Shown here: piece by piece, positions 7,580 through 20,377 of the stretch | How the letters are laid out: every line of letters begins with the position of its first letter | How positions within the stretch are numbered: the first letter of the stretch is position 1 | Source: Bacillota bacterium | Lineage (GTDB): Bacteria; Bacillota; Bacilli; Bu12 | DNA length: 64,000 bases | Assembly: GCA_014896485.1 (NCBI GenBank) | Contig: JADBKH010000007.1 | Location: 83,963 to 147,962 of the forward strand | Direction: 5' to 3' | Position numbers and translations under genes: made by a program | The notes under the pieces: generated by a model | Database searches by the model: none | Seen by the model: the letters and a program-made list of their open reading frames with translations, nothing else | Told to the model about the DNA's origin: nothing

Positions 7580-8821
7580 TCAATGCCCGAATTGGATCAA
7601 GTGGCGTAAAGTGCGCCCGGCCAATGTAAAAAACGGAGCGCGTTGTGCATCTGCACCGGCAAGGAGTGGCGTTGAAGAAACGATTCGGCCATTGGGCGAA
7701 AGGAGGGTGATCGTGCCGACCGGCGTTCCTTTGCGCAGTGGTAGATCAACAGACTGCCACGCGATTCTTTCTTGATACCCACTTTCGGATTCGCCACGGC
7801 GCAATAACAAAGCGATGGTCTCTCCTGCGACGGCGGGTACATACTCCGGCTGTCCTTTCGGTAGGTGCAGGGTTTTTACCACTTGTCCCTTTTCATAAAG
7901 GTGGCGTTGTTGATACTGAGCAAATGCGTATTGGAGCATATGGGCTACTTCGGCATTACGAGTCTTGGGATTCGGTTCGCCCATGACCACCGCGACAACA
8001 CGAAAGACCTCTTCGGCTTTTGTCGCAGTCAGGCAATAGCCCGCCTGTTGTGTAAATCCTGTCTTGAGTCCGTCGACACCAGGTAGAAAGTGTACCAGTC
8101 GATTCGTGTTGACGAGCTGAAATGGTTTTTTGGAATCCTTGCGAATCCAGTCTTCATAAGTTGATGTATAACGCAAGACTTCTCGATGCTCGAGCAGTGC
8201 TCTGGACATACGCGCGATATCTGCTGCACAGGAATAATGCTGGGACGCAGGTAAACCGTTGGCGTTGGCAAAATGCGTGTGCTTCATACCGAGTGCCTGA
8301 GCTTTTTGATTCATCATGGCCACGAAAGCGGGTTCACTACCTGCAATCCGTTCTGCCAATGCCACTGCGGCATCGTTGGCTGAGGCGATGGCGACGGCCT
8401 TGATCAGGTCTTCGACCCGCATGCGCTCCCCTGGAGCGAGAAAAATTTGACTGCCCCCCATGGAGGCTGCATGAGGGCTGGCTATTACTTCCTCGTTGAA
8501 GGAGAGACGTCCTTGTTCGATGGCTTCGAAAGTGAGCAGTAGGGTCATTACTTTGGTAATAGAGGCTGGCTCCAGTTCCTTGTCGGGTTCTTTGGCGTAG
8601 AGAATCTGTCCTGTGGCTACATCCATGAGGACCGCTGAACGCGCGTGGGGTGCCAAATCCAGGGTTGGTGATTTTTCTGGAGCTTCTTGGGCCACTGCAA
8701 GGGCAGGCAACAGCCCCGATCCCGCAAGAGAAGCAAGGATCAATGCACTCACCCAAGCGGAGACTCGCCGCCTGAGGGCGCCCCACCGTTTTTTCGCTGG
8801 CTGGGCGACGCTTCGTTGCAT
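7580..8821 (-). CDS. dacF: D-alanyl-D-alanine carboxypeptidase DacF (sporulation PBP)
   Basis: SITKVMT is the SxxK motif, SANDAA is the SxN motif. It sits upstream of spoIIAA as in B. subtilis. Start taken at the Met before the signal peptide (MQRSVAQPAKK...). Confidence 0.85.
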   Translation of the reverse strand: MQRSVAQPAKKRWGALRRRVSAWVSALILASLAGSGLLPALAVAQEAPEKSPTLDLAPHARSAVLMDVATGQILYAKEPDKELEPASITKVMTLLLTFEAIEQGRLSFNEEVIASPHAASMGGSQIFLAPGERMRVEDLIKAVAIASANDAAVALAERIAGSEPAFVAMMNQKAQALGMKHTHFANANGLPASQHYSCAADIARMSRALLEHREVLRYTSTYEDWIRKDSKKPFQLVNTNRLVHFLPGVDGLKTGFTQQAGYCLTATKAEEVFRVVAVVMGEPNPKTRNAEVAHMLQYAFAQYQQRHLYEKGQVVKTLHLPKGQPEYVPAVAGETIALLLRRGESESGYQERIAWQSVDLPLRKGTPVGTITLLSPNGRIVSSTPLLAGADAQRAPFFTLAGRTLRHLIQFGH

Positions 8822-8938
8822 GGGATTCCATCTCCCTTTCCCGCGCACCTGTGCACGTTTCCAGGAATACAGTGCCCACACATCGGAAGAGCTATCACGC
8901 ATTTCTTCCCTCAATCGTACAAAAGGAGATGAGGCGGT

Positions 8939-9820
8939 TTACGCGCGGGGATGTGTCTGATCGTAGCTATCGCGCAGTTGTTGGGGAAAAAGATGTGTGT
9001 AAATCTCGGTTGTCGCTAGGTCGGCATGCCCCAAGAGCAGTTGGACATCACGCAGGCTAGCTCCGCCGGCAAGCAGATGGGTCGCGAAGCTATGGCGGAG
9101 CATGTGTGTGGTCACCTCTGGGGGCAAGTTCGCCTGACGTCCATAGCGCTTGACGAGTGACCACACGGCTTGGCGTGACAAAGGAGTCCCCCGTTGTGAG
9201 AGAAAGAGTGCTTCTCTGGAAGACGGGCCGGACCAAAGGGGACGTACATCTTTGATATACGATGTAACCCATTCTATGACCACAGAGGGCAATGGCACGT
9301 AGCGCTCCTTAGACCCTTTTCCGAAGCAGCGTACCTGTCGAGTTGTCAACGAGACATCCGCTACGGTCAACGTACACACTTCCGAAGCGCGCAATCCTGC
9401 TCCATACAGCATTCCCAAAAGTGCCTGATCCCGCTTTCCTGCCGCTGTAGTGGTTGTTGGTTGGGAAAGGAGACGCATTACCTGCTCGACACTGAGTACA
9501 ACGGGTAACCGCCGCTGCTTTTTGGGGGTGGCCAAATAGGCGGCAGGATCCTCTTGGAGGAACCCTTCTTCATGTAGCCACTCACACCATCCACGTACGG
9601 CCGTCATTTTGCGCGCTGCCGTGGCAGGGTGCGCGCCGCATTCGTGGATCTGCTCAAAGAACCGCTGAATCGTTTCCCGGTCGATCCCTGAGAGATCCTC
9701 GACGTCTCTTTTCTGCAAAAAAGCAGCGAATTGGCGTAGATCGCTTTGATAGGCAGCCAAGGTGCTAGGGGCAAGCCCTCGCTCGACAGACAGCAGATCG
9801 AGATAATGTTGTATTGACAC
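8939..9820 (-). CDS. xerD: Tyrosine recombinase XerD/RipX (chromosome dimer resolution)
   Basis: HYLDLLSVERGLA...RHSFATHLL...LLGHADLATTEIYTHL carries the catalytic R-H-R-Y residues. The position matches B. subtilis ripX. A GTG at 9820 is the likely start. The ORF extends to 9964. Confidence 0.8.
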   Translation of the reverse strand: MSIQHYLDLLSVERGLAPSTLAAYQSDLRQFAAFLQKRDVEDLSGIDRETIQRFFEQIHECGAHPATAARKMTAVRGWCEWLHEEGFLQEDPAAYLATPKKQRRLPVVLSVEQVMRLLSQPTTTTAAGKRDQALLGMLYGAGLRASEVCTLTVADVSLTTRQVRCFGKGSKERYVPLPSVVIEWVTSYIKDVRPLWSGPSSREALFLSQRGTPLSRQAVWSLVKRYGRQANLPPEVTTHMLRHSFATHLLAGGASLRDVQLLLGHADLATTEIYTHLFPQQLRDSYDQTHPRA

Positions 9821-9845
9821 TTGAATTTCTACAGCGGACCCCGAT

Positions 9846-10730
9846 TTATTCGAAGGAATGGGAGATCCTCCTTCTTTGGGCAAAAGTAACAAAAGAGGTA
9901 TAACCCGCTTCACGTGCAAGCTTTTGGGCGGTTTCAAGTGCCCTCCCGATATCGTTGGGCTCATGTGCGTCGCTTACTGTTGTGATGGGGACACCTGACT
10001 GCGCAAAGCTGCGTAATAACGCTGGTTCTGGACAGGCTCGGCCAATGGGGTAACGGTAGATCAATCCTGTATTTACTTCGGTAGCAACATCACACTCTGC
10101 AAAGGTATCCGCAACCTGATGATAGAGTGCCAATGGTTCTTGGGTGGGACGATGTCCGTACGCCTTCAAGGAGTCCGGATGCGCAATGACGTCGAAAAGT
10201 CCACTTCTGGCTGCTTCTTGCAGCAACGCGAAGTAACGTCGGTAAGTCACATCGATCTCACGATGCTTCCATTCGGGTAAGTTAAAGCGAAAGTCAAATC
10301 CCCACCCGTCGATCCAATGAACAGAGCCGACGAGATAATCCCACGGATAGCTGGCCAGGAGTTTTTTGGCCAGTGCAACGGTTTCGGGGAAGAAACAGAC
10401 TTCCAGACCGAGGGCAATCGGCCACCCTTCTCCTTTCAGACGTAAGACGAGCTCGATATAGCGCTCGACGTCCTCGTGAAAATGAGCCTGGTACCAAGCC
10501 CGCTGTCGTTCCCCCAAAAGGGTTTCGTCACGCAAAACGGGTTCATAAAGGGGTTGGAACTGTCGGAAATGATGTGTATGTTCGGTGACTCCAAAAAATT
10601 GGATACCCGATTGTAGGCCTCTCTCTAGAAAACGAAGTGCGTATTCTCGATCGATGCGACCCCTTTCCAAGTGCCAATGCAGATCTGCGTACACGTTTCT
10701 CCCCCTCGTGCTTTTCCTTGTGTGGCTCAT
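9846..10730 (-). CDS. PHP-domain phosphoesterase (HisJ histidinol-phosphatase family)
   Basis: YADLHWHLE is the D-x-H-x-H motif, followed by GVTEHTHH. Start at the internal Met (MSHTRK...). Confidence 0.6.
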   Translation of the reverse strand: MSHTRKSTRGRNVYADLHWHLERGRIDREYALRFLERGLQSGIQFFGVTEHTHHFRQFQPLYEPVLRDETLLGERQRAWYQAHFHEDVERYIELVLRLKGEGWPIALGLEVCFFPETVALAKKLLASYPWDYLVGSVHWIDGWGFDFRFNLPEWKHREIDVTYRRYFALLQEAARSGLFDVIAHPDSLKAYGHRPTQEPLALYHQVADTFAECDVATEVNTGLIYRYPIGRACPEPALLRSFAQSGVPITTVSDAHEPNDIGRALETAQKLAREAGYTSFVTFAQRRRISHSFE

Positions 10731-10761
10731 CGCCCAAGGATGCACCTTCCTGCCGGAGACA

Positions 10762-11355
10762 CTACTTTGGCTGAAAGAAAGCAGCTGGATCACTGCGCAT
10801 ACGCTGGAACCAAAGCAACCCGACAAGCGTTTTTGCATCAAAAATGTCTCGCTCTAAAAGCTCCGGTGTGACCTCTTGCGGTTGGACGAGGATGACATCG
10901 ATTTGCTCATCTTCTTCTGGATGGGCACGGCCGAGGTGAGCTGGCGTAGCGAGAAAGAGGGAGATGGATTCGCTGGAAATGCCAGGAGAGGTGGCAAAAG
11001 AAGTGAGCAAACGCCATGAATCGGCGACGAATCCGGTCTCTTCCTCTAACTCACGTTTTGCAGCAACCAAAGGAGTTTCACCTGGCTCCACCTTTCCGGC
11101 AGGAAGCTCGAGCAGGTAGCGATCGACGGGATAGCGGTACTGTCGTTCGAGCACCAGTTCTCCACTCTCCGTCAATGCCAAAACCGCAGCAGCACCAGGG
11201 TGATAGACGACTTCACGTTTGGCAACTGTCCCATTGGAAAGGAGGACGCGATCATCACAGACGGTGATGATGCGCCCCTGGTAGGCTTGAGTACGATCGA
11301 GCTGTTTTTCTGTAGGTAGATCTTTTAAGTGCGCCAGCGCCTCACTGAGATTCAT
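10762..11355 (-). CDS. nudF: ADP-ribose pyrophosphatase (Nudix hydrolase)
   Basis: Nudix box GKVEPGETPLVAAKRELEEETG. Its ATG overlaps the upstream TGA as ATGA. Confidence 0.8.
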   Translation of the reverse strand: MNLSEALAHLKDLPTEKQLDRTQAYQGRIITVCDDRVLLSNGTVAKREVVYHPGAAAVLALTESGELVLERQYRYPVDRYLLELPAGKVEPGETPLVAAKRELEEETGFVADSWRLLTSFATSPGISSESISLFLATPAHLGRAHPEEDEQIDVILVQPQEVTPELLERDIFDAKTLVGLLWFQRMRSDPAAFFQPK

Positions 11356-12476
11356 TGCAGCGCTCCTCTGCTATTTTGCCAGCTTCCAAATGATTGCCAG
11401 TGTACCCCGCCTGGATGCGGATGGGCAGTCTGTACCAGCTGACCCGCAAAAAAACCGCTGGCTGCAGCTGCGTCAAAAAAAATAGGATCTTCCTCTGATC
11501 GTCGCCCCATGGTTCGCCACGGAACATTGGCTGGGTAGTTGGGTACGGGTGTCTCTTCGACGACGAAAACGCTGGAAGAAAGGGCTATTTCCAACTGATG
11601 CGCGATCAATGTTCGCTTTTGCGGATTCACTGTTGGCAGCGGCAGCCAACATGGGGCCAACAAAACCGATAAAAGCGTACGCGTGTGATGGGAGAGTCCG
11701 TAATGTCTTTCGCGGTGCTCTGCAAAAGAGATTCGTGGTGTCATGACCCCTACTCCACCCAACGCAGCGGTTGCATGGATAGTCGTGGCCACTTCCATAC
11801 CAGAAAAGCCAAAGGGCGTATTTGTGCCGACAATACCTGGACCCATCGCAACGATGGCCAGATCGGCGTGCAGCACATTACGCGCTGCCAGCAGCGCACT
11901 GTAAATGTTGACAGCCTCCAAATCGCCGCCGAATGCTTGGCCCACGGTGATCGACCCTAAGAGACGACCTTCTTGACGCATGCGTCTGATCGTCTGCGAA
12001 AATGCGATTGGTAAAGAACCTCCCTCGGTCATGATATAGGCGATGCGATGAATTCCTGCGGCGATGGCACCATACGCAATCGGCTCAACTTGGCTATGTA
12101 GTTCGGCAGCAACAACCACGAGATGATCCAAGTTTCTTGCTTGCTGCATTGAGGCATGATAAGGACTTTCAGGTGCTTCGACGCTATTGACGCCAAACTG
12201 AAGGGGCGTATACCGAAGCTTCATAATATGTCCTGATGCCAACGCTGAAGCTTCTGGCTGGCTCCTTCCTGCTACGAAATACACACCACCTGTGCCAAGT
12301 CGCCGTTCCACAGCCTCACTGTTGAGCCAGAGCGATTCGCCCGCCTTGCATCTGCCAAAAAAACGTACTTCATTGATGGCTGTCGCTTCTCTTCCGTCTC
12401 CCAGGCGTACGATCAGGATTTGTATCTGCTCATCTTCCTGACGGATCCCTTCGACACTCGCCTCTACCAGACGCAT
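11352..12476 (-). CDS. Hypothetical protein, probable YqxK-like (DUF3866) partner of nudF
   Basis: 374-aa soluble protein with no recognisable catalytic motif. Family assignment is inferred from the conserved yqxK-nudF pairing and from memory of DUF3866, so it is weak. Confidence 0.35.
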   Translation of the reverse strand: MRLVEASVEGIRQEDEQIQILIVRLGDGREATAINEVRFFGRCKAGESLWLNSEAVERRLGTGGVYFVAGRSQPEASALASGHIMKLRYTPLQFGVNSVEAPESPYHASMQQARNLDHLVVVAAELHSQVEPIAYGAIAAGIHRIAYIMTEGGSLPIAFSQTIRRMRQEGRLLGSITVGQAFGGDLEAVNIYSALLAARNVLHADLAIVAMGPGIVGTNTPFGFSGMEVATTIHATAALGGVGVMTPRISFAEHRERHYGLSHHTRTLLSVLLAPCWLPLPTVNPQKRTLIAHQLEIALSSSVFVVEETPVPNYPANVPWRTMGRRSEEDPIFFDAAAASGFFAGQLVQTAHPHPGGVHWQSFGSWQNSRGALQ

Positions 12477-12488
12477 CGGATGCGACCA

Positions 12489-12659
12489 CTACAACGATTT
12501 GGAAGCGCCAAAACCGAGTACACCACCGACGACTGCCAGCAACAAGGGGAGCCACACCCCTCCCATTTTGACGCTGGCCGTAAAGACAGCGAGAGCAAAG
12601 ATGACGACACAGGCGATCAAAAGCAGTGTTGCCAAAACGAGACGATCTAAATGCGCCAT
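12489..12659 (-). CDS. Small two-helix membrane protein
   Basis: MAHLDRLVLATLLLIACVVIFALAVFTASVKMGGVWLPLLLAVVGGVLGFGASKSL. RBS GGAGGTG lies 5 nt before the ATG at 12659. Confidence 0.4.
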   Translation of the reverse strand: MAHLDRLVLATLLLIACVVIFALAVFTASVKMGGVWLPLLLAVVGGVLGFGASKSL

Positions 12660-12709
12660 TGAGACACCTCCGCGGCCTTGTATTTCTATCATACCTGTCG
12701 GCAAACAGA

Positions 12710-13573
12710 TCACAAGTCACTATCGGTCCCCCATCGGTCGAATCGCCGGAGCAACGCATGACGATCGATCCAGGCACTCAGTGAATGACTGCTTGTCCAG
12801 TAGTGGAAAAAAACCAGCAAGATCAGTAAAACACCTTTTCCCCAAAGTGGCAAAGCGAGGACGGCCCACAAACCAAAGGCGGCGCCGAGCAAATTGGCAC
12901 CTGAATCGCCCAGCATGGCCCTTTTGCGCAAGTCCATGGGGAAAAAGGAAAGACTAGCGCCGACGAACGGTAGGATGGTCACAGCTCCCTTTCCTTCCAT
13001 GAGGATAAGCCCGATCAACGAAGAGAAATAGAAACCCTTCAGCGCTCTCCCTGGCCGCAGGTCCAGCAAATTGATGGCATTGGCAGATAAAGCAATGAGA
13101 AGAGCATCCAGGAGAGCGAGTGTCCAGGAAGAATGGAGAGAAAATCCCATCGTCAATGCAAGTGCAAATCCTCCTGCAGCCTTGATGCCTCCCGTTGTCC
13201 ACTGCCTGTGCCAGAGGGCGGACAGATGGGCACGAAAGCCCCGCGTTCGATGATCGCCAGCTGCATCGTCTAACAGGCCCAAAAGTGTAAAGCCGGATGA
13301 AAGGGCGATGACCCAAGGGTCCCAGGGGAGCCATTTTGGCCAAGTCATTGTGGGGAACAGGGATTGTAGAAAAGGTTGTAAGACAGAACCCAATGCAGAG
13401 GTTGCCAAAATGGCTCCCCAACAGAGAAGCCCTCCTGCTGTTGGAAGTCGTTTTCCCGTATAGTTGCTGGCGACCAAAGGCGTATCAGAGAGCATCTCCA
13501 CGAGTGGCTTGCTCAACCAAAAGGCGATACCTCCACTGATGAGCGTTATCAATCCGACCGCCAGCCAGTTCAT
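12710..13573 (-). CDS. MraY/WecA-family (GT4) polyprenyl-phosphate sugar-1-phosphate transferase
   Basis: GLLDDAAG and NAINLLDLRPG resemble the DD and NAxNxxDGxDG motifs of family-4 transferases. About 8 TM segments. Confidence 0.6.
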   Translation of the reverse strand: MNWLAVGLITLISGGIAFWLSKPLVEMLSDTPLVASNYTGKRLPTAGGLLCWGAILATSALGSVLQPFLQSLFPTMTWPKWLPWDPWVIALSSGFTLLGLLDDAAGDHRTRGFRAHLSALWHRQWTTGGIKAAGGFALALTMGFSLHSSWTLALLDALLIALSANAINLLDLRPGRALKGFYFSSLIGLILMEGKGAVTILPFVGASLSFFPMDLRKRAMLGDSGANLLGAAFGLWAVLALPLWGKGVLLILLVFFHYWTSSHSLSAWIDRHALLRRFDRWGTDSDL

Positions 13574-14290
13574 CTACGCTTCTTGCCTCGGCTGAGGAGG
13601 AAAATGCTTTTGAAGATAACCCCGTTCCCAAGAGGCGTGAACAACGTCCCAAAGCTGCTTTCCGCGATGAAGAAACGCGCCAGGAGAGCGTCCTGTTTCG
13701 CGATGTCCAAAGTCCGTCGGAATTTCACAGAGGCGCAGACCGAGGCGGAGCGCCTCTATCGTCATCACAACTTCGACAGCGTAGCCATCGGCAAATGGAG
13801 CCAACTGGCGAGCTGCAGCTGCGGTGAGAGCCCGTTGTCCAGAAAGAGGTTGATGGACGGCAACGCCAGTTGCATGTCGCACGATTTTCTTTGCCGTCCA
13901 CTTGACCAAACCAAAACCGCCCTTCCTGTGCGCAGGGGGCAAGATGCCGATCACCAGATCTGCGTGTCCGTCAAGCAGCGGCTGGAGGAGCACAGCAGCG
14001 TGACGAGCAGATCCTTCCAAATCGGCATCGAGAAAAAGGTAGAGATCGACATCGGGAACTTGCTCTACCGCAAGGGTTAAGGCGGCACCTTTTCCTCTCT
14101 GTCGACCGGTTGAGAGAAGGTGCACGCTTGACGCTTTCGCTACTTCCTGCGTGGTGTCTGTGGAACCGTCATCAACGACGATGATCCTGGGATGAAAGGG
14201 AAGTTCAGCCACCGTCTCTATTGTCTGTCGAAGTGTTAAAGCTTCGTTGTGTGCTGGAATGATGGCGGCAATACGAGGAAAGGTCGTCAT
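13574..14290 (-). CDS. GT2 glycosyltransferase (polyprenol-phosphate mannose/glucose synthase-like)
   Basis: IPAHNEALTL...VVDDGSTD...FLDADL is the GT-A DXD architecture. Confidence 0.7.
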   Translation of the reverse strand: MTTFPRIAAIIPAHNEALTLRQTIETVAELPFHPRIIVVDDGSTDTTQEVAKASSVHLLSTGRQRGKGAALTLAVEQVPDVDLYLFLDADLEGSARHAAVLLQPLLDGHADLVIGILPPAHRKGGFGLVKWTAKKIVRHATGVAVHQPLSGQRALTAAAARQLAPFADGYAVEVVMTIEALRLGLRLCEIPTDFGHRETGRSPGAFLHRGKQLWDVVHASWERGYLQKHFPPQPRQEA

Positions 14291-15273
14291 TGGCCTGCGC
14301 CCCCTGAGGATGGTTCAGTTTGGCGAGTAGGAGCATTTTGGGTAGAGGGGTGCGGCAGACGGGATGCCTCCGGAGCGAGCAACGTGGCGATATTGGGGGG
14401 TATCAAACGTTCCGCAGTGGGCTTTTCCCCAAAATTGCCTGTTGCGCCGAGCAAAGCAGCGACCAACGATAACTGCCCGATCGGTTGATCGACATTGTCG
14501 ACCGAGGTGACGTGGCTGGTCTGAAAGACAGGAAAGCTAGAAACTGTAACCCGCAAATTTTCTACACCTACGACATAGGTACCATCGTCTTTGAGCCGCA
14601 TCAACGCGGTTCGGTCGACAGTCGTTTGATCTGCCGTCTCGGGTTGGTTGGCACCTCCTATGACGATGACTGCATCGACCTTGGAACGAGTTTTGATCTG
14701 TTCTTCCCTGCGGACGGTGAGCAATCCGTCACTGCTTAAGGTGTTGAGTAACCAACCATTGGGTGAATTGGGATCATACAGTGCGTCGACAACGGCATTG
14801 GTTAATGTCGTGTAAAAAGTCGAATTGGACGTCGTTGCTGGTAACCCCAACAGCTGTTCCATCTGCGACACTTTGTCCAGATTGACATATTGTAGCCTTC
14901 CGACAAGATCGGCCTGCCATGCGACCTGGGCCCCTGCAAGTGTCAGCGTCCGTTGCACCTGATCGGGGGCCCCCCCATAGAGATTGAGGATGCCAACCTG
15001 CATTCCATCCAATTGTCCGCTGATTACAGTCGGCAAGATCGCTTCGACAGCAGCTTGGTAGTTGGAGAGCTGCAGCTGAGTCTGTGTTAATTGCTGTGCT
15101 GTGGTCTGCATGTTTTGTGTCAACTCGCCGATTTTTGCATCGGCACGTTGAACGGTTTGAATCTGTTCCCGGTTGATCACGTCTTGTCCGATCGATGCTC
15201 CCAGCAAAATTCCCAAAGCAAGTGCCAAGAAAACAGCAACCAAGGTCGCAATATGGTACCGAAAATCACTCAC
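14287..15273 (-). CDS. SteB-like membrane protein (DUF3186 / MctB copper-transporter family)
   Basis: N-terminus MSDFRYHIATLVAVFLALALGILLG is the family signature, followed by coiled-coil and C-terminal domains. ATGA overlap with the GT2 gene. Confidence 0.65.
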   Translation of the reverse strand: MSDFRYHIATLVAVFLALALGILLGASIGQDVINREQIQTVQRADAKIGELTQNMQTTAQQLTQTQLQLSNYQAAVEAILPTVISGQLDGMQVGILNLYGGAPDQVQRTLTLAGAQVAWQADLVGRLQYVNLDKVSQMEQLLGLPATTSNSTFYTTLTNAVVDALYDPNSPNGWLLNTLSSDGLLTVRREEQIKTRSKVDAVIVIGGANQPETADQTTVDRTALMRLKDDGTYVVGVENLRVTVSSFPVFQTSHVTSVDNVDQPIGQLSLVAALLGATGNFGEKPTAERLIPPNIATLLAPEASRLPHPSTQNAPTRQTEPSSGGAGQ

Positions 15274-15289
15274 GCACGCAAAAGCCCTT

Positions 15290-16429
15290 TCATGTAAGCA
15301 GCAGCTTCACATTGTAGTAGAGCAGGCGCAATACATTTTGCGCGGTTGGACTCAACAGTGCGAAAAGAACGGCTGGGACCAGCGCTGCCACCAAGACAAG
15401 GGCGACTGGTCCAAACGAGACATGACCATGATAAAGCTGTGAAACGCCCTTTGCATCTACCAGTCGATCCCCGATCTTCATTCGCGTCAAAAGGGTACTG
15501 GCCATCCCCTTTCGGCCCTTTTGCAGAAAATCTGTCATGGTGGAATGGGAACCTACGGCAACCAAGAGGCTGCAATCCGACTCATAGAGCATCAGCAGGG
15601 CAACGTCTTCACTTGTTCCAGGTGCTGCAATCACATGGGCCTCAAGGCCCATCGCTTGAATCCGTTGAAGCCCTGGCGCATTTCCATCGAGGTATGCATG
15701 GACGACCAATTCGGCACCACTGGTCAATGCGCGATCGCTAACCGAATCCATGTCTCCGACGATGATGTCGGGGCGCATGCCCATGCGCAGCAGTGCGTCG
15801 GCTCCTCCATCTACACCGACCAGTACGGGATGATGATCGCGTATGTAAGGTGCGATGGCCCGTAAATCCTGTTGGTAATGTGCCCCTCGCACCACGACAA
15901 CTGCTGGCCGATGTGCCACAGGTGTTCGTAAGTTTGGCCCAGGAAAAGGGTGCAAGAAGAAGTCTTTTTCCTTGCGGACATATGCGATCGTGTTCTCCAG
16001 GAAGTCATCGAGTGCCTCCGGCAATGCCTGACGCGCTGCCGCCAGTGCTTCCTCGACTTCTTCTATAGAAATTTGGTGGGCAGAAGAGAGGAAGACACGA
16101 TTGCAGTAAAAGGCTCCACCGATGATTTCGACCCAGTCGCCCTCTTCTACTGCATCAAAGACGGTATGCGGCACATCAAACAGCGGAATACCTGCCTCTA
16201 GAAGAATGGCGGGCCCTGCATTTGGGTATGCCTTTGTAATACTGATGGCGGCATTGATCACAGCTTTTGGATGTACCTCCACCAAAGCGTGAGCCGCTAT
16301 CTCATCCAGTGCGTCATGCTGCAGCAATGCGATGTCGCTACTTGCCAGCCGAGGAATGAGGTGCTTGGTTTTGACGTCTTTTTTGACGCGGCCACATACG
16401 GTAGGACGTGTCGCTTGGTCTGCAGCCAT
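15290..16429 (-). CDS. steA: SteA-like putative cytokinetic protein (thiamine pyrophosphokinase-like fold)
   Basis: GRVKKDVKTKHLIPRL...VINAAISITKAYPNAGPAILLEAGIPLFD matches the SteA N-terminal region. It starts 10 nt after the spo0A stop. Confidence 0.65.
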   Translation of the reverse strand: MAADQATRPTVCGRVKKDVKTKHLIPRLASSDIALLQHDALDEIAAHALVEVHPKAVINAAISITKAYPNAGPAILLEAGIPLFDVPHTVFDAVEEGDWVEIIGGAFYCNRVFLSSAHQISIEEVEEALAAARQALPEALDDFLENTIAYVRKEKDFFLHPFPGPNLRTPVAHRPAVVVVRGAHYQQDLRAIAPYIRDHHPVLVGVDGGADALLRMGMRPDIIVGDMDSVSDRALTSGAELVVHAYLDGNAPGLQRIQAMGLEAHVIAAPGTSEDVALLMLYESDCSLLVAVGSHSTMTDFLQKGRKGMASTLLTRMKIGDRLVDAKGVSQLYHGHVSFGPVALVLVAALVPAVLFALLSPTAQNVLRLLYYNVKLLLT

Positions 16430-16439
16430 GCTGTCTCCC

Positions 16440-17273
16440 CTACCTTCGCCCTGCGGCACTCTCCGTTTCACTCAATGCGTCATTGAGTTGCAAATAATCG
16501 GCGACCATTGCGATAAACTCAGAATTGGTTGGTTTATCTCGCTCTGCATCGACTGTATACCCAAACATTTTACGAATGGTTTCGGCATTGCCACGTCCCC
16601 AAGCGACTTCGATAGCATGCCGAATCGCACGCTCGACACGACTGGGGGTTGTTTCAAACTGTGCCGCGATGGTCGGGTATAAAACTTTTGTGACAGCCCC
16701 CAATACTTCTCTATCCTTATAGACCATTAAGATGGCTTCCCGCAAGTATTGATACCCTTTGATATGCGCAGGTACTCCCAGATCGTGGATGAGCGTAGAA
16801 ATATCACTTTCTAGTCGGGCCCGCTGGTTGACGGAAGTCGGAGCCGGAGTCACGGCCAATGCACGCTTTTCCCGATTGAGTGCTCCTGGGGATGCAATAC
16901 AAATCTCGCGCAATCGCTGCGCCAACACTTCCAAAGGGAAAGGCTTCATAATGTAATATTGTGCGCCGAGCTCAACGGCGCGTTGGGTAATCTGTTCTTG
17001 TCCAAATGCAGAAAGCATGATGACATGGGGAACAGGATTTAATTGCATCGATTGGAAGCGTTCCAAAACGCCAATACCGTCTAAATGAGGCATGATGATA
17101 TCCAGCAGCAAAACGTCGCATGCAGCGTGGGAGAGCAAGGCAATGGCCTGTTCGCCGTCACTAGCCGTTCCAACAATTTCAAAATCTCCTTGTTGCTGCA
17201 AAAATGCGGCCAGTTGATCTGTGAACTCGCGGTTGTCATCTGCGACAATCACCCGAACTTTCTCGTTGGACAC
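16440..17273 (-). CDS. spo0A: Sporulation master regulator Spo0A
   Basis: Receiver domain VADDN...[12 protein letters not shown] plus the Spo0A C-terminal domain [10 protein letters not shown]...EFIAMVAD. Confidence 0.95.
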
Positions 17274-17383: not shown

Positions 17384-17415
17384 CCAAAAAGAGGCAGGCC
17401 GTTAGGCCGCCTTCT
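17384..17415 (-). terminator. Probable intrinsic terminator at the spoIVB 3' end
   Basis: Imperfect GC hairpin AGGCGGCC-TAAC-GGCCTGCCT followed by CTTTTTGG on the minus strand. The stop codon lies within the stem. Confidence 0.4.
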
Positions 17416-18565
17416 CTTCTTCACGCACTTGTTCGTACATCCACTGTGCTAAAACGCCATACCCTCGTGTCGGATCATTGACAAAGACATGGGTAACTGC
17501 TCCGGCCAGACGCCCATCCTGTAAGATGGGGGAACCGCTCATACCTTGTACGATACCGCCACTGGTATGCAGAAGTTTTGGATCTGTCACACGCAGTGCC
17601 AAGCCTTTGGGTGCTGGCGTGCGTTGATTCATCACGCTGATGATCTCTACCTGAAAATCTTCAATCTTCTCTCCTCGAACGACGGTGCGCAAGGTTGCAG
17701 GACCTGGATGTACCTGTGCCGGTGTAGCGATTGGAACCATGCGATGCCAATCCAAAGAAGTATCATCCGTGATTTTCCCGAAAATGCCAAACTCGGTATT
17801 CCCTGTGACAGTTCCAATTTGTGGACTTTTTGCAAGGAATTCGCCTTGTTTTTCACCGGGTTGGCCACGTTCTCCTTTTTCAAGAGCAACGATTTTAGCT
17901 GCAACGATTTTTCCACTTCCTATCGGGACAGGTTGTCCAGTTTGGGGATCGGAGACCTGGTGGCCCAACGCTGCAAATCGGTGAGTACTCGGATCGATGA
18001 AGGTAAGTGTTCCAACGCCGACAGCCGCATCCTTGAGCCACAGACCGAGTTGATAATGTTGTCCATTGGCTTCTTTGACCGGTGCGATCTGCACGTCCAA
18101 TTTCCGATCGCCGCGCTCCACTCGAAGATGCAAAGGCTTATTGGCAACCCCAGCCTGTTGCACAAGCTTCTCGAGGGAGACAGGATCGATGGCTTTACCA
18201 TCTCTGGCGAAAAGGAGATCGCCGACATGGATTCCAGCGGCTTCCGCTGGAGAGTATGTCCTTTCAGCAGTATGGATGGGATGAAAGCCTACTACCAGCA
18301 AGCCAGGTGTTTTCAGCGTCACCCCGATCGATTCCCCACTGACAATCACATTTGCCGAAGCTGCCATGGCGCGTGCGGCCGTCAGGGAGATCGCTGGCCG
18401 ACCTGCTGTCGTGACTGATTTGCTTGCAGGAGAAGCGCTCCCCATCTCTGAGGTACTCTCTGCCACCCCCATCGTCCACAGAACTGCCAAAAGGATCAAC
18501 GCGCATTTCCGTATCGCTTTTCCCTTCGAATTGCCCTCTCCTAAACCGTTTCTGCCGCTGTGCAC
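17402..18565 (-). CDS. spoIVB: SpoIVB signalling serine peptidase (S55)
   Basis: A PDZ-like region (IHVGDLLFARDG) precedes the catalytic region GGIVQGMSGSPI. It sits between recN and spo0A as in Bacilli and Clostridia. Confidence 0.85.
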   Translation of the reverse strand: MHSGRNGLGEGNSKGKAIRKCALILLAVLWTMGVAESTSEMGSASPASKSVTTAGRPAISLTAARAMAASANVIVSGESIGVTLKTPGLLVVGFHPIHTAERTYSPAEAAGIHVGDLLFARDGKAIDPVSLEKLVQQAGVANKPLHLRVERGDRKLDVQIAPVKEANGQHYQLGLWLKDAAVGVGTLTFIDPSTHRFAALGHQVSDPQTGQPVPIGSGKIVAAKIVALEKGERGQPGEKQGEFLAKSPQIGTVTGNTEFGIFGKITDDTSLDWHRMVPIATPAQVHPGPATLRTVVRGEKIEDFQVEIISVMNQRTPAPKGLALRVTDPKLLHTSGGIVQGMSGSPILQDGRLAGAVTHVFVNDPTRGYGVLAQWMYEQVREEEKAA

Positions 18566-18661: not shown

Positions 18662-20377
18662 TTACCCGTTTCGCAATCCCGCTGCCAGGGTCAACATCTC
18701 TTGGGCGCTTTGCCGGGTCAGCTGGGTCACTTTGGCTCCTCCCAGCATGCGCGCCAGCTCTTCTACGCGTTGACTTCCTTCCAGATGTATAGCCTTTGTC
18801 TGCGTGCGGCCGCCCGACTGGATCTTGGCAACGCTGATGTGCAGGTTTCCCATTGCAGCGATTTGCGGTAAGTGCGTAACGCACAATACCTGCTGATGGC
18901 GAGCGAGGCTGGCCAGCTTTTCGGCTAGGGCTTGTCCACTTCGTCCGGCGACTCCAGTATCCACTTCGTCAAATACCAAGGTATCCACCTCGCCCATCGT
19001 ATGGATCGTCACCTTTAAGGCGAGGATCAATCGAGACAGCTCACCCCCAGAAGCGACCCGCTCCAAAGGACGAGGGGGTTCTCCAGCATTGGCTGCCAAC
19101 AGGAATCGGATGGTCTCGCTCCCTGATGGTGATACAATCTGGTGGTCGATTTCCAGGCCCCGCTTGATAGGTTCGAAAGCTACCGTGACCCTGCTGTTCG
19201 ACATATGTAGCGCCTGCAGGTGCTTCTCTACCTCTGCAGAAAAAAGCGGCGCCGCTTGATGACGAAGCTGCGAAAGAACAGTGTCTGCCTGACGGTAGTC
19301 GTCAAGAAGATGGGCACACCTCTTACGCAACGCGATTGCCTCATCCTCCAGGTGTTGCAAGCGCTCTCCCTCTTCACGCCTTGCTTGGGCATAAGCGAGA
19401 ATATCGGGTATGGTAGCCCCATACTTGTGCTTGAGTCGCTCAATGGAGGCCAGCCGCTCTTCTACTTCGGCCAATCGCGATGGATCGGACGAGATTTGAT
19501 CCGCATGCTGGCGAAGACTGTGCGCAAGTTCTTCGACACGCATGGCCAGCTCGTTGGCCTCTTGTGCCCACGAAGCGGCCTCGGGATCGAAGGAGCCAAT
19601 CGTTGATAATGCCGCGGCAGCAGCAGCCAGCTCATCGTAAGCAGTTGGTAACCCATTTTCACCCTCATACAGGTGGACAAAAGCTTCGCGAAAGCGTAAC
19701 AGCCGTTCCTGAACGTGACGTAACGCTTCCCGCTCCTCTAACAGCGCCTCATCTTCTCCAGGTTGTGGTGCCACATGTTCGATCTCTGCGCATTCGTAGG
19801 CGATTAAATCCAGTTCACGTTCGCGTTGCCTGGACTGCTCCTCCAATTTCTGTAGCTCCGCCTGCGTCTCTGCGATCGCTTCGTAGTATTTCCGAACACG
19901 TTGTCGTTCTTGTGCGGCCTCATCGCCGATAAACGCGTCTAAGAAAGCGACGTGTTCTACAGGATCCAAGAGCCTTTGCTGCTGATGTTGGCCGCAAAAA
20001 TCGACGAGGTGGCGCTGTAATTGCCGCAAAGTCGCCAATCCCACTGGGATGCCATTGGCCCGTGCGGTACTACGGCCGGATGAGGTCACTTCGCGATGCA
20101 ACACCAAACCGCCATCTTCTTCGACGGCGATTCCGAGTGCCTCAGCTTGTTGACGCTGGGTGTCATTTAAACGGAAAGCAGCATCAACCGTCGCTTTCTC
20201 CGCTTGCTCTCGCACCCATTCCATTCCCCCCCGTTCACCCAATGCCAGCATCAGGGCATCGACAATCATCGATTTTCCTGCGCCGGTTTCTCCTGTGATG
20301 ACGTTGAGGCCTAGATCGAACTCCAACGAGAGCTCTTCGATAAGGGCAAGGTTACGCACGTGCAGTTCCTCAACCAC
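18662..20377 (-). CDS. recN: DNA repair protein RecN
   Basis: Walker A GETGAGKS, long coiled coil, C-terminal signature and Walker B GELSRL...LVFDEVD. Confidence 0.9.
   Translation of the reverse strand: MVEELHVRNLALIEELSLEFDLGLNVITGETGAGKSMIVDALMLALGERGGMEWVREQAEKATVDAAFRLNDTQRQQAEALGIAVEEDGGLVLHREVTSSGRSTARANGIPVGLATLRQLQRHLVDFCGQHQQQRLLDPVEHVAFLDAFIGDEAAQERQRVRKYYEAIAETQAELQKLEEQSRQRERELDLIAYECAEIEHVAPQPGEDEALLEEREALRHVQERLLRFREAFVHLYEGENGLPTAYDELAAAAAALSTIGSFDPEAASWAQEANELAMRVEELAHSLRQHADQISSDPSRLAEVEERLASIERLKHKYGATIPDILAYAQARREEGERLQHLEDEAIALRKRCAHLLDDYRQADTVLSQLRHQAAPLFSAEVEKHLQALHMSNSRVTVAFEPIKRGLEIDHQIVSPSGSETIRFLLAANAGEPPRPLERVASGGELSRLILALKVTIHTMGEVDTLVFDEVDTGVAGRSGQALAEKLASLARHQQVLCVTHLPQIAAMGNLHISVAKIQSGGRTQTKAIHLEGSQRVEELARMLGGAKVTQLTRQSAQEMLTLAAGLRNG

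Follow-up and report, generated by a model that had tools for sequence, protein, structure and literature searches.

In Corynebacterium and Mycobacterium tuberculosis, SteA forms a dimer in the cytoplasm and has a pocket for nucleotides, and SteB is an extracytoplasmic coiled-coil protein. In Actinobacteria, the two form a transmembrane septal complex. This complex recruits a coiled-coil NlpC/P60 peptidoglycan endopeptidase and activates it, which allows the daughter cells to separate. The structures of SteA and SteB have been solved, and SteB was shown to bind the coiled coil of RipA (PMC12977500, mBio 2026). The pocket of SteA is thiamine pyrophosphokinase (TPK)-like, and CgSteA was stabilised by GDP or UDP (PMC12977500). 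Mutants of steAB are hypersensitive to ethambutol and show a cell-separation defect (PMC6705760). The FtsEX-controlled hydrolases RipC, CwlO and PcsB are comparable, in that a coiled-coil peptidoglycan hydrolase is likewise positioned by two parts, one cytoplasmic and nucleotide-binding and the other extracytoplasmic (PMC12977500). However, the SteAB proteins are unrelated to FtsEX and contain no ABC ATPase. In a subset of Bacillota, mainly Clostridia, steAB is located immediately downstream of spo0A, and this adjacency is already published (PMC12977500). Here, we analysed a stretch of 64,000 nucleotides (nt) from a Bacillota bacterium (contig JADBKH010000007.1; the window), in which spo0A is followed by steA, steB, a glycosyltransferase gene and a gene for a shortened membrane protein of the MraY/WecA fold.

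The stable core of the cluster is formed by these last four genes. We concluded, with a probability of about 0.8, that the region is an ordinary copy of an ancient gene block for the cell envelope and cell division, and that it was inherited vertically. All coordinates refer to the whole window, and all genes of the cluster are on the minus strand. The core genes are as follows.

15290..16429, minus strand: steA (NF040608, PF12555, PF04263, PDB 9hmy)
14287..15273, minus strand: steB, MctB family (PF11382; family profile against the MtSteB and Cg1604 structures)
13574..14290, minus strand: soluble GT-A glycosyltransferase of 238 aa, GpgS-, DPMS- and ArnC-like (PF00535)
12710..13573, minus strand: shortened MraY/WecA-fold, PNPT-like membrane protein of 287 aa (PF00953, profile, AlphaFold2, Foldseek)

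The identification of the first two genes, which had been proposed from the sequence, was borne out by profile searches. SteA scored 455 bits against the NCBIfam model NF040608 division_SteA (cut-off 150), covering model positions 2-368 of 369, and it also matched PF12555 and the TPK catalytic domain PF04263. The solved SteA structures were matched with E-values of 2e-56 (9hmy) and 5e-42 (9hmz). The motifs GVDGGAD and GDMDSVSD were invariant in 17 homologues. SteA is thus a cytoplasmic protein that binds nucleotides in a TPK-like domain and ends in a membrane helix and an amphipathic tail. The ATG start that gives a protein of 379 aa was the same as in the public annotation (locus tag IMW91_02530, 100% identity), and the nearest relatives were from Firmicutes, at ~50% identity. 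The partner gene steB begins 16 nt beyond the steA stop. SteB scored 123 bits against PF11382 MctB (cut-off 25.6) over the whole model (positions 1-306 of 306), and consists of an N-terminal membrane helix, a coiled coil and an extracytoplasmic globular domain. A single-sequence search of the PDB with SteB gave no useful match. The family profile, built from Firmicute and actinobacterial sequences, matched MtSteB/MctB (9m9z, E 8e-29; 9hle, 4e-27) and Cg1604 (8au6, 7e-22).

Both proteins are thus clear homologues of SteA and SteB of C. glutamicum (cgp_1603-1604) and M. tuberculosis (Rv1697-Rv1698/MctB) by NCBIfam equivalog, Pfam and structures. As in these species, the two genes are adjacent and the pocket motifs of SteA are conserved. 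For M. tuberculosis we take the gene order to be tlyA-ppnK-recN-Rv1697-Rv1698-pyrG-nudix-xerD, with pyrG directly after Rv1698. In the surveyed Actinobacteria, recN is upstream of steA; in the window it is upstream of spoIVB-spo0A, and these two genes stand between recN and steA. Other differences were also found. SteB showed only ~25% identity to the actinobacterial proteins. In addition, steAB is directly followed here by the GT-A and PNPT-like genes, whereas glycosyltransferases are unmentioned in PMC12977500. We infer that SteAB in the window genome does the same kind of vegetative-division job as in Actinobacteria.

Two surveys of the gene neighbourhood were conducted, comprising ~160 loci together. 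In the forward survey, one genome per GTDB species was scanned with a SteA alignment and the 80 best loci were kept; in the reverse survey, metagenome loci were seeded on the PNPT-like protein. Neighbours were marked by tblastn with the window's own proteins, and the denominators are the loci with enough flanking sequence. In the non-actinobacterial loci, steA was followed by a family 2 glycosyltransferase (GT2) gene in 40/41, by a PNPT-like gene in 40/41 and by steB in 34/41; the missing steB genes were probably too divergent for the threshold. Upstream, spo0A was found in 35/40 and spoIVB in 34/40 of these loci. Downstream, DUF3866 was found in 27/39, nudF in 23/39 and xerD in 20/39. The order was present in Syntrophomonadaceae, Peptostreptococcaceae, Thermoanaerobacterium, Desulfotomaculum-type Clostridia, Tissierellia, Natroniella, Limnochordia, Dethiobacter and Tumebacillus. 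All 22 actinobacterial loci that could be scored carried nadK-recN-steA. A PNPT-like gene followed in 15/20 and a GT2 gene on the same strand in 3/20, one of them a Thermoleophilia metagenome-assembled genome (MAG), and nudF and xerD were also downstream in some loci. The reverse survey gave steA upstream of the PNPT-like gene in 34/38 loci, GT2 in 31/38 and spo0A in 20/38.

In Firmicutes, nadK, argR and recN usually precede the core, and DUF3866, nudF and xerD usually follow it. The order nadK-recN-steA-steB-(GT-A)-PNPT-like...nudF-xerD was common to Firmicutes, Actinobacteria and some MAGs labelled Armatimonadota, in which the cluster was also found. Since this order recurred in the forward, actinobacterial and reverse surveys, the block from nadK to xerD looks ancestral. 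A more parsimonious account is that, in endospore formers, spoIVB-spo0A is placed between recN and steA. In Peptostreptococcus canis, a member of a non-spore-forming genus, recN was directly before steA, and neither spo0A nor spoIVB was found there. To our knowledge, B. subtilis has no steA cluster. Its spo0A and nudF regions are, as we take it, in the same order and ~60 kb apart, and B. subtilis would be a derived state.

The block decays in the class Bacilli, as seen in three cases. The distance between spo0A and steA was 8.7 kb in a MAG labelled Brevibacillus, and in Tumebacillus avium no spo0A was found within 10 kb of the four-gene unit. In Effusibacillus lacus (locus L081, 10001-13689), steA-steB-GT2-PNPT-like formed an isolated four-gene unit with moaA and moaC upstream and DUF2627, a sigma-54 activator and the bkd operon downstream; no spo0A or DUF3866 was found nearby. 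Some local variants of the order were also observed. In four loci (L019, L093, L100 and L114), nadK was directly followed by steA and recN was not between them; these loci may come from Armatimonadota-like genomes, a group in which the PNPT-like gene is also present, under Chthonomonadaceae names. A gene of the CCA-adding/poly(A)-polymerase family (407 aa) was located between spo0A and steA in L025 (8638-9861) and in other Terrisporobacter- and Romboutsia-type loci. In L004 (13636-14757) and other Syntrophomonadaceae, a gene for an M20/M42-type peptidase (~375 aa) was located between the PNPT-like gene and DUF3866.

The third core gene encodes a glycosyltransferase that matched PF00535 with 73 bits. 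Its DAD motif contains D88 and D90, which were invariant. The original prediction had called it a GT2 gene like those of polyprenol-phosphate glycosyl synthases. The family assignment was retained, and the specific type was not recovered, as the protein stayed below every NCBIfam cut-off (AglJ, 93 versus 325; PpgS, 47 versus 370; ArnC, 22 versus 529), and also below that of the GpgS (GT81) equivalog NF010496 (64 bits versus 262). Moreover, no membrane or interface helices were found in the 238-aa protein, which ends with the GT-A domain. When the family profile was compared with the PDB, glucosyl-3-phosphoglycerate synthase GpgS was matched with an E-value of 1e-22, dolichyl-P-mannose synthase (DPMS) with 2e-19 and ArnC with 3e-17. 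All three share the GT-A domain with a DxD motif and use phosphate-bearing acceptors. A PLSGxxA...PFAxGxGVE block is in common with GpgS, whereas the membrane and interface helices of DPMS and ArnC are missing. Soluble GT-A enzymes that need a membrane partner are known, namely human DPM1 with DPM3 and mycobacterial Ppm1 with Ppm2. From the sequence, a polyprenyl-phosphate acceptor is plausible for the GT-A protein.

The fourth core protein matched PF00953 weakly, with 30 bits against a cut-off of 27. A single-sequence search of the PDB gave no match, and the family profile matched MraY (8g01) with an E-value of 1e-8. The AlphaFold2 model had a pLDDT of 93 and a pTM of 0.91, and a Foldseek search with it returned only MraY and DPAGT1, with a probability of 1.0 and TM-scores of 0.55-0.63. 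The protein had been described as a GT4 MraY/WecA-like transferase. The profile, PF00953 and the model agreed with MraY/WecA; the GT4 label had to be dropped, because the Pfam family Glycos_transf_4 contains the MraY/WecA phosphotransferases and is not GT4 of CAZy. The fold is the same as that of MraY, WecA and DPAGT1, with a beta-hairpin after the first helix. D102, D103 and D223 were invariant in 26 and in 39 sequences and aligned with the DD and GD of MraY; the MLGDxGxN motif, which corresponds to (M/F)xGDxGS/N, was also invariant. However, several features differ from those of the known enzymes. Besides the weak sequence similarity, the protein has a length of only ~275 aa and nine membrane helices in the model, and the chain ends after helix 9 and two short helices. 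The NxxNxxDGxDG motif of MraY was not intact. It was replaced by an invariant NxxNLxDLRPGR, in which the second Asp is Pro, within the signature NxxNLxDLRPGRAxK of the 26 aligned orthologues. Loop E and its His motif have a role in MraY. The region that holds the tenth helix and loop E in MraY is missing from the model, and the profile alignment stopped at about chain residue 301 of 360. Because of this missing region, we termed the protein PNPT-like and not a full member of the family.

A fusion of the two sugar-handling proteins was observed in a Thermoleophilia MAG (L073, 14634-15830). There, the GT-A protein and the PNPT-like protein without its first helix form one in-frame open reading frame (ORF) of 398 aa, and pyrG is the next gene downstream. 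The two parts are joined where the beta-hairpin predicted behind the first membrane helix begins, a position that, by analogy with MraY, we presume to be cytoplasmic. As this is a single MAG, the fusion may be an assembly error. Another apparent PNPT fusion, of 684 aa in L080, was set aside, since it most probably reflects an ORF called too long in a contig of high GC content.

A cluster of the same order has been described in C. difficile. The genes cdr20291_1053-1057 are annotated as a pyrophosphokinase (373 aa), an exported protein (291 aa), a family 2 glycosyltransferase (230 aa), a glycosyltransferase (274 aa) and DUF3866 (355 aa) (PMC12157513). They are essential and their function is unexplained, and knock-down gave chaining, short, swollen and phase-bright cells (PMC12157513). 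The knock-downs of each of four genes are listed with the same phenotype, although polarity is possible, and the name SteA is absent from that paper (PMC12157513). CDR20291_1052 is spo0A (PMC5311115), so that the order and annotations are the same as in the window, directly after spo0A; no 56-aa ORF is listed in C. difficile. The first four lengths were equal to those of the Romboutsia locus L028 (373, 291, 230 and 274 aa). By annotation, order and length, cdr20291_1053-1056 appears to be a SteAB-type four-gene cluster. The chaining seen on its knock-down lends indirect support to a septal position of SteA and a part in cell separation. When a Peptostreptococcaceae PNPT-like protein was used as a query, the named matches among the 120 listed were Terrisporobacter and Romboutsia.

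In the window, the genes downstream of spo0A are, in order, steA, steB, GT-A, PNPT-like, a 56-aa ORF, DUF3866, nudF, a PHP phosphatase gene and xerD. Upstream of spo0A are spoIVB, recN, argR, nadK, a TlyA/FtsJ-type methyltransferase gene and dxs. The features outside the core are as follows.

18662-20377, minus strand: recN (ORF; SMC_N gene call in the colinear sibling locus L162; synteny)
17402-18565, minus strand: spoIVB (ORF; Peptidase_S55 gene call in the colinear sibling locus L162; synteny)
16440..17273, minus strand: spo0A (TIGR02875, 371 bits)
12489..12659, minus strand: 56-aa ORF with two predicted membrane helices (ribosome-binding site; sibling conservation)
11352..12476, minus strand: DUF3866, YqxK-like (PF12982, 358 bits)
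10762..11355, minus strand: nudF-type NUDIX hydrolase (PF00293)
9846-10841, minus strand: PHP phosphatase ORF (331 aa)
8939..9964, minus strand: xerD-type recombinase, the downstream end of the conserved block (ORF; Phage_integrase gene call in L162)

The intergenic distances from spo0A to nudF were, in order, 10, 16, −4 (ATGA), 0, 50, 12 and −4 nt. The ATG of steA, 10 nt past the TAG of spo0A as had been seen before, is preceded by a GGGAG ribosome-binding site. The ATG of the GT-A gene overlaps the steB stop as ATGA, the PNPT-like start abuts the GT-A stop, and the nudF start overlaps the DUF3866 stop (ATGA). The junctions had been given as ATGA or 0-13 nt. The packing is indeed tight; the range was too narrow, since gaps of 16 nt and, just before the 56-aa ORF, of 50 nt are present. 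The sibling genome (L162/L163) was colinear from nadK to spoVA, including the 56-aa ORF, and its PNPT-like protein was 86% identical. In comparison with this genome, every gene was under purifying selection. As predicted mechanically, the ORFs of the PHP phosphatase (331 aa) and of xerD (341 aa) run into the adjacent genes. Shorter gene calls in the sibling (282 and 293 aa) point to start codons that probably lie inside these ORFs. A gene for a PBP5-type D-Ala-D-Ala carboxypeptidase is located downstream of xerD (7580-8914, minus strand). In the colinear sibling locus L162 (12754-16864), the carboxypeptidase is followed by spoIIAA, spoIIAB, sigF, a dodecin gene and spoVAC/spoVAD. Because of the carboxypeptidase and of the spoIIA-sigF-spoVA genes of the sibling, the whole window is in the usual order of a sporulation region.

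The 56-aa ORF, which had been noted as a two-helix membrane protein, has a GGAGG ribosome-binding site 7 nt ahead of its ATG. Compared with the sibling copy (L162, 8916-9086), nine codon differences were synonymous and one was non-synonymous. The ribosome-binding site and the mostly synonymous change indicated that the ORF is real. A longer version with a GTG start was excluded by a 1-nt indel just upstream in the sibling genome. The ORF was not found at this position in any other surveyed lineage and is lineage-specific. In Firmicutes, DUF3866 generally takes the fifth place in the cluster. Many Gly, His and Arg residues were invariant in 15 orthologues, for example in GHIMKLRYTP and RERHxGxSHH. 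Searches of the PDB with the single sequence and with the profile found no relative of DUF3866, the best match being a SIS-type protein with an E-value of 0.09, which was not significant. A single-sequence structure model of DUF3866 had a pLDDT of 34 and was discarded.

The junction between spo0A and steA was compared among the loci. No terminator-like site was found in the spo0A-steA gap, which is 10-11 nt in the window and the sibling, and read-through from spo0A promoters into steA is therefore likely in this lineage. Among 55 loci with spo0A upstream, 40 had spacers of 6-362 nt. A strong hairpin with a T-run was present in 27/40 of these short spacers, and the other 13 were mostly ≤80 nt. 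This meant that co-transcription is the minority state and that the adjacency mainly reflects a gene order that was inherited. When the window was scanned for promoters and terminators, there were no more matches than in shuffled sequence. A sigma-70-like site (GTGGCA-16 nt-TAAAAT; 16567-16594, minus strand), to which we give little weight, was observed inside spo0A, near its 3' end and ~140 nt ahead of the start codon of steA. The coupling to spo0A put forward in the original prediction thus fits the missing terminator in the window. It does not extend to a general coupling, given the terminator-like spacers and the units away from spo0A in Effusibacillus and Tumebacillus.

Other explanations for the position of the cluster were weighed against vertical inheritance. 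The original prediction had read the region as a five-gene insert that joined two separate neighbourhoods, and had regarded the arrangement as unusual. In such a reading, a lineage-specific insertion would have joined the spo0A and yqxK-nudF neighbourhoods and placed SteAB and a lipid-sugar module under Spo0A. It has on its side the 10-nt distance from spo0A to steA without a terminator, and its premise is that the two neighbourhoods are apart in B. subtilis, which we assume to be so. However, the neighbourhood survey found a ubiquitous gene order, the same across many Clostridia and beyond, which is an outcome that the original prediction itself had named as its refutation. The base composition is even (GC 0.50-0.57 across the region), the closest SteA relatives are Firmicutes at ~50% identity, and the recN-steA backbone is common to Actinobacteria, some of which have nudF and xerD downstream. 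We therefore consider a lineage-specific insert very improbable. Acquisition from Actinobacteria by horizontal transfer could be suggested by the fact that SteAB was first described, and is best conserved, in that phylum. Against it, there is no compositional break, the best SteA matches are from Firmicutes, and the cluster lies inside a block that is colinear with other Firmicutes and with the sibling genome. Such a transfer is exceedingly improbable. Composition and synteny thus led us to reject both an insert and a transfer.

A third explanation is that the cluster serves sporulation specifically, for instance in asymmetric septation, in engulfment or in the remodelling of the cortex, and is kept beside spo0A for co-regulation. 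This was proposed in one sentence of PMC12977500 and is consistent with the presence of spo0A upstream in 35/40 non-actinobacterial loci. In addition, 13/40 short spacers lack a terminator-like hairpin, as in the window and the sibling. However, the strong hairpins in the other 27 spacers argue against co-regulation as the reason. The cluster is also kept in loci without spo0A or spoIVB (Peptostreptococcus canis, Actinobacteria and the Armatimonadota-labelled MAGs), and the unit is far from spo0A in Effusibacillus, Tumebacillus and the Brevibacillus-labelled MAG. In C. difficile, vegetative growth depends on the matching cluster, which is essential. A sporulation-specific job is thus quite unlikely, while an additional role of the cluster in sporulation may exist. 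It is also conceivable, but unlikely, that the GT-A and PNPT-like proteins act in a pathway of their own, such as a wall-polymer linkage unit or a glucosylglycerate-type solute, and merely travel with steAB. This would agree with the closeness of the GT-A protein to GpgS and with the many Actinobacteria that have lost GT2 and kept steAB. It would also agree with four loci (L087, L108, L133 and L139) in which the PNPT-like gene had no steA within the 4.5-6 kb upstream and, in the first three, was accompanied by GT2; these may represent a detached form of the GT-A/PNPT-like pair. In contrast, the adjacency to steA held in both directions of survey (40/41 and 34/38), stop codons overlap or adjoin the next start, and the four genes move as a unit in Effusibacillus. 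The four C. difficile knock-downs, listed with the same phenotype, also speak against separate pathways, with the reservation that polarity is possible.

The reading of a four-gene unit was supported by its isolation in Effusibacillus lacus, its position away from spo0A in Tumebacillus avium and the GT-A::PNPT-like fusion of L073. On this basis a mechanism can be proposed. The GT-A protein would dock on the cytoplasmic face of the MraY-like protein, and the pair would move a sugar from a UDP- or GDP-sugar onto an acceptor that bears a phosphate and is probably a polyprenyl compound. The pocket of SteA would sense either the UDP or GDP set free in this reaction or the sugar nucleotide, and the cleavage of the septal wall would thereby be tied to the supply of envelope precursors. 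We put this model of docking, sugar transfer and nucleotide reading forward as a tentative one. A wider proposal is that SteAB was originally one half of a four-part machine. The GT-A and MraY-like proteins would make a membrane-linked sugar, and UDP, GDP or an NDP-sugar would be the ligand through which SteA gates septal cleavage. The systems of M. tuberculosis and Corynebacterium would then be reduced versions, and C. difficile 1053-1056 the full version. This proposal is doubtful at present.

Several of the observations weigh against the interpretation as a whole. The PNPT-like protein lacks two hallmarks of its family. Because the His-rich region of loop E and the last helix is missing and the second Asp of DGxDG is Pro, it may be a non-catalytic, lipid-binding subunit. 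The closest solved relative of the GT-A protein is a soluble enzyme that acts on 3-phosphoglycerate, which is a soluble acceptor. No partner hydrolase was identified in the 64-kb window, in which no search was aimed at one. The match to C. difficile is one of annotation, order and length, and not of sequence comparison. The loci that carry the PNPT-like gene away from steA count in the same direction. Finally, the forward survey consisted of the 80 best matches to the query, so the sample leans to its relatives.

For the window itself, the result is mainly a correction, since the arrangement is a common ancestral one. Two conserved sugar-handling genes stand directly behind steAB in most of the Firmicutes surveyed and in many Actinobacteria. 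In the literature searched, no paper was found that links SteAB with glycosyltransferases or with C. difficile, and the four-gene linkage appears to be undescribed. The partnership of steAB with the GT-A and shortened MraY-like proteins, and the C. difficile cluster as a SteAB system, are therefore modestly new leads. By annotation, order and length, the mycobacterial SteAB hydrolase regulator appears to match the first two genes of the essential and unexplained C. difficile cluster. The linkage offers a concrete candidate for what the orphan nucleotide pocket of SteA senses, and a testable entry into an essential division function of a pathogen.

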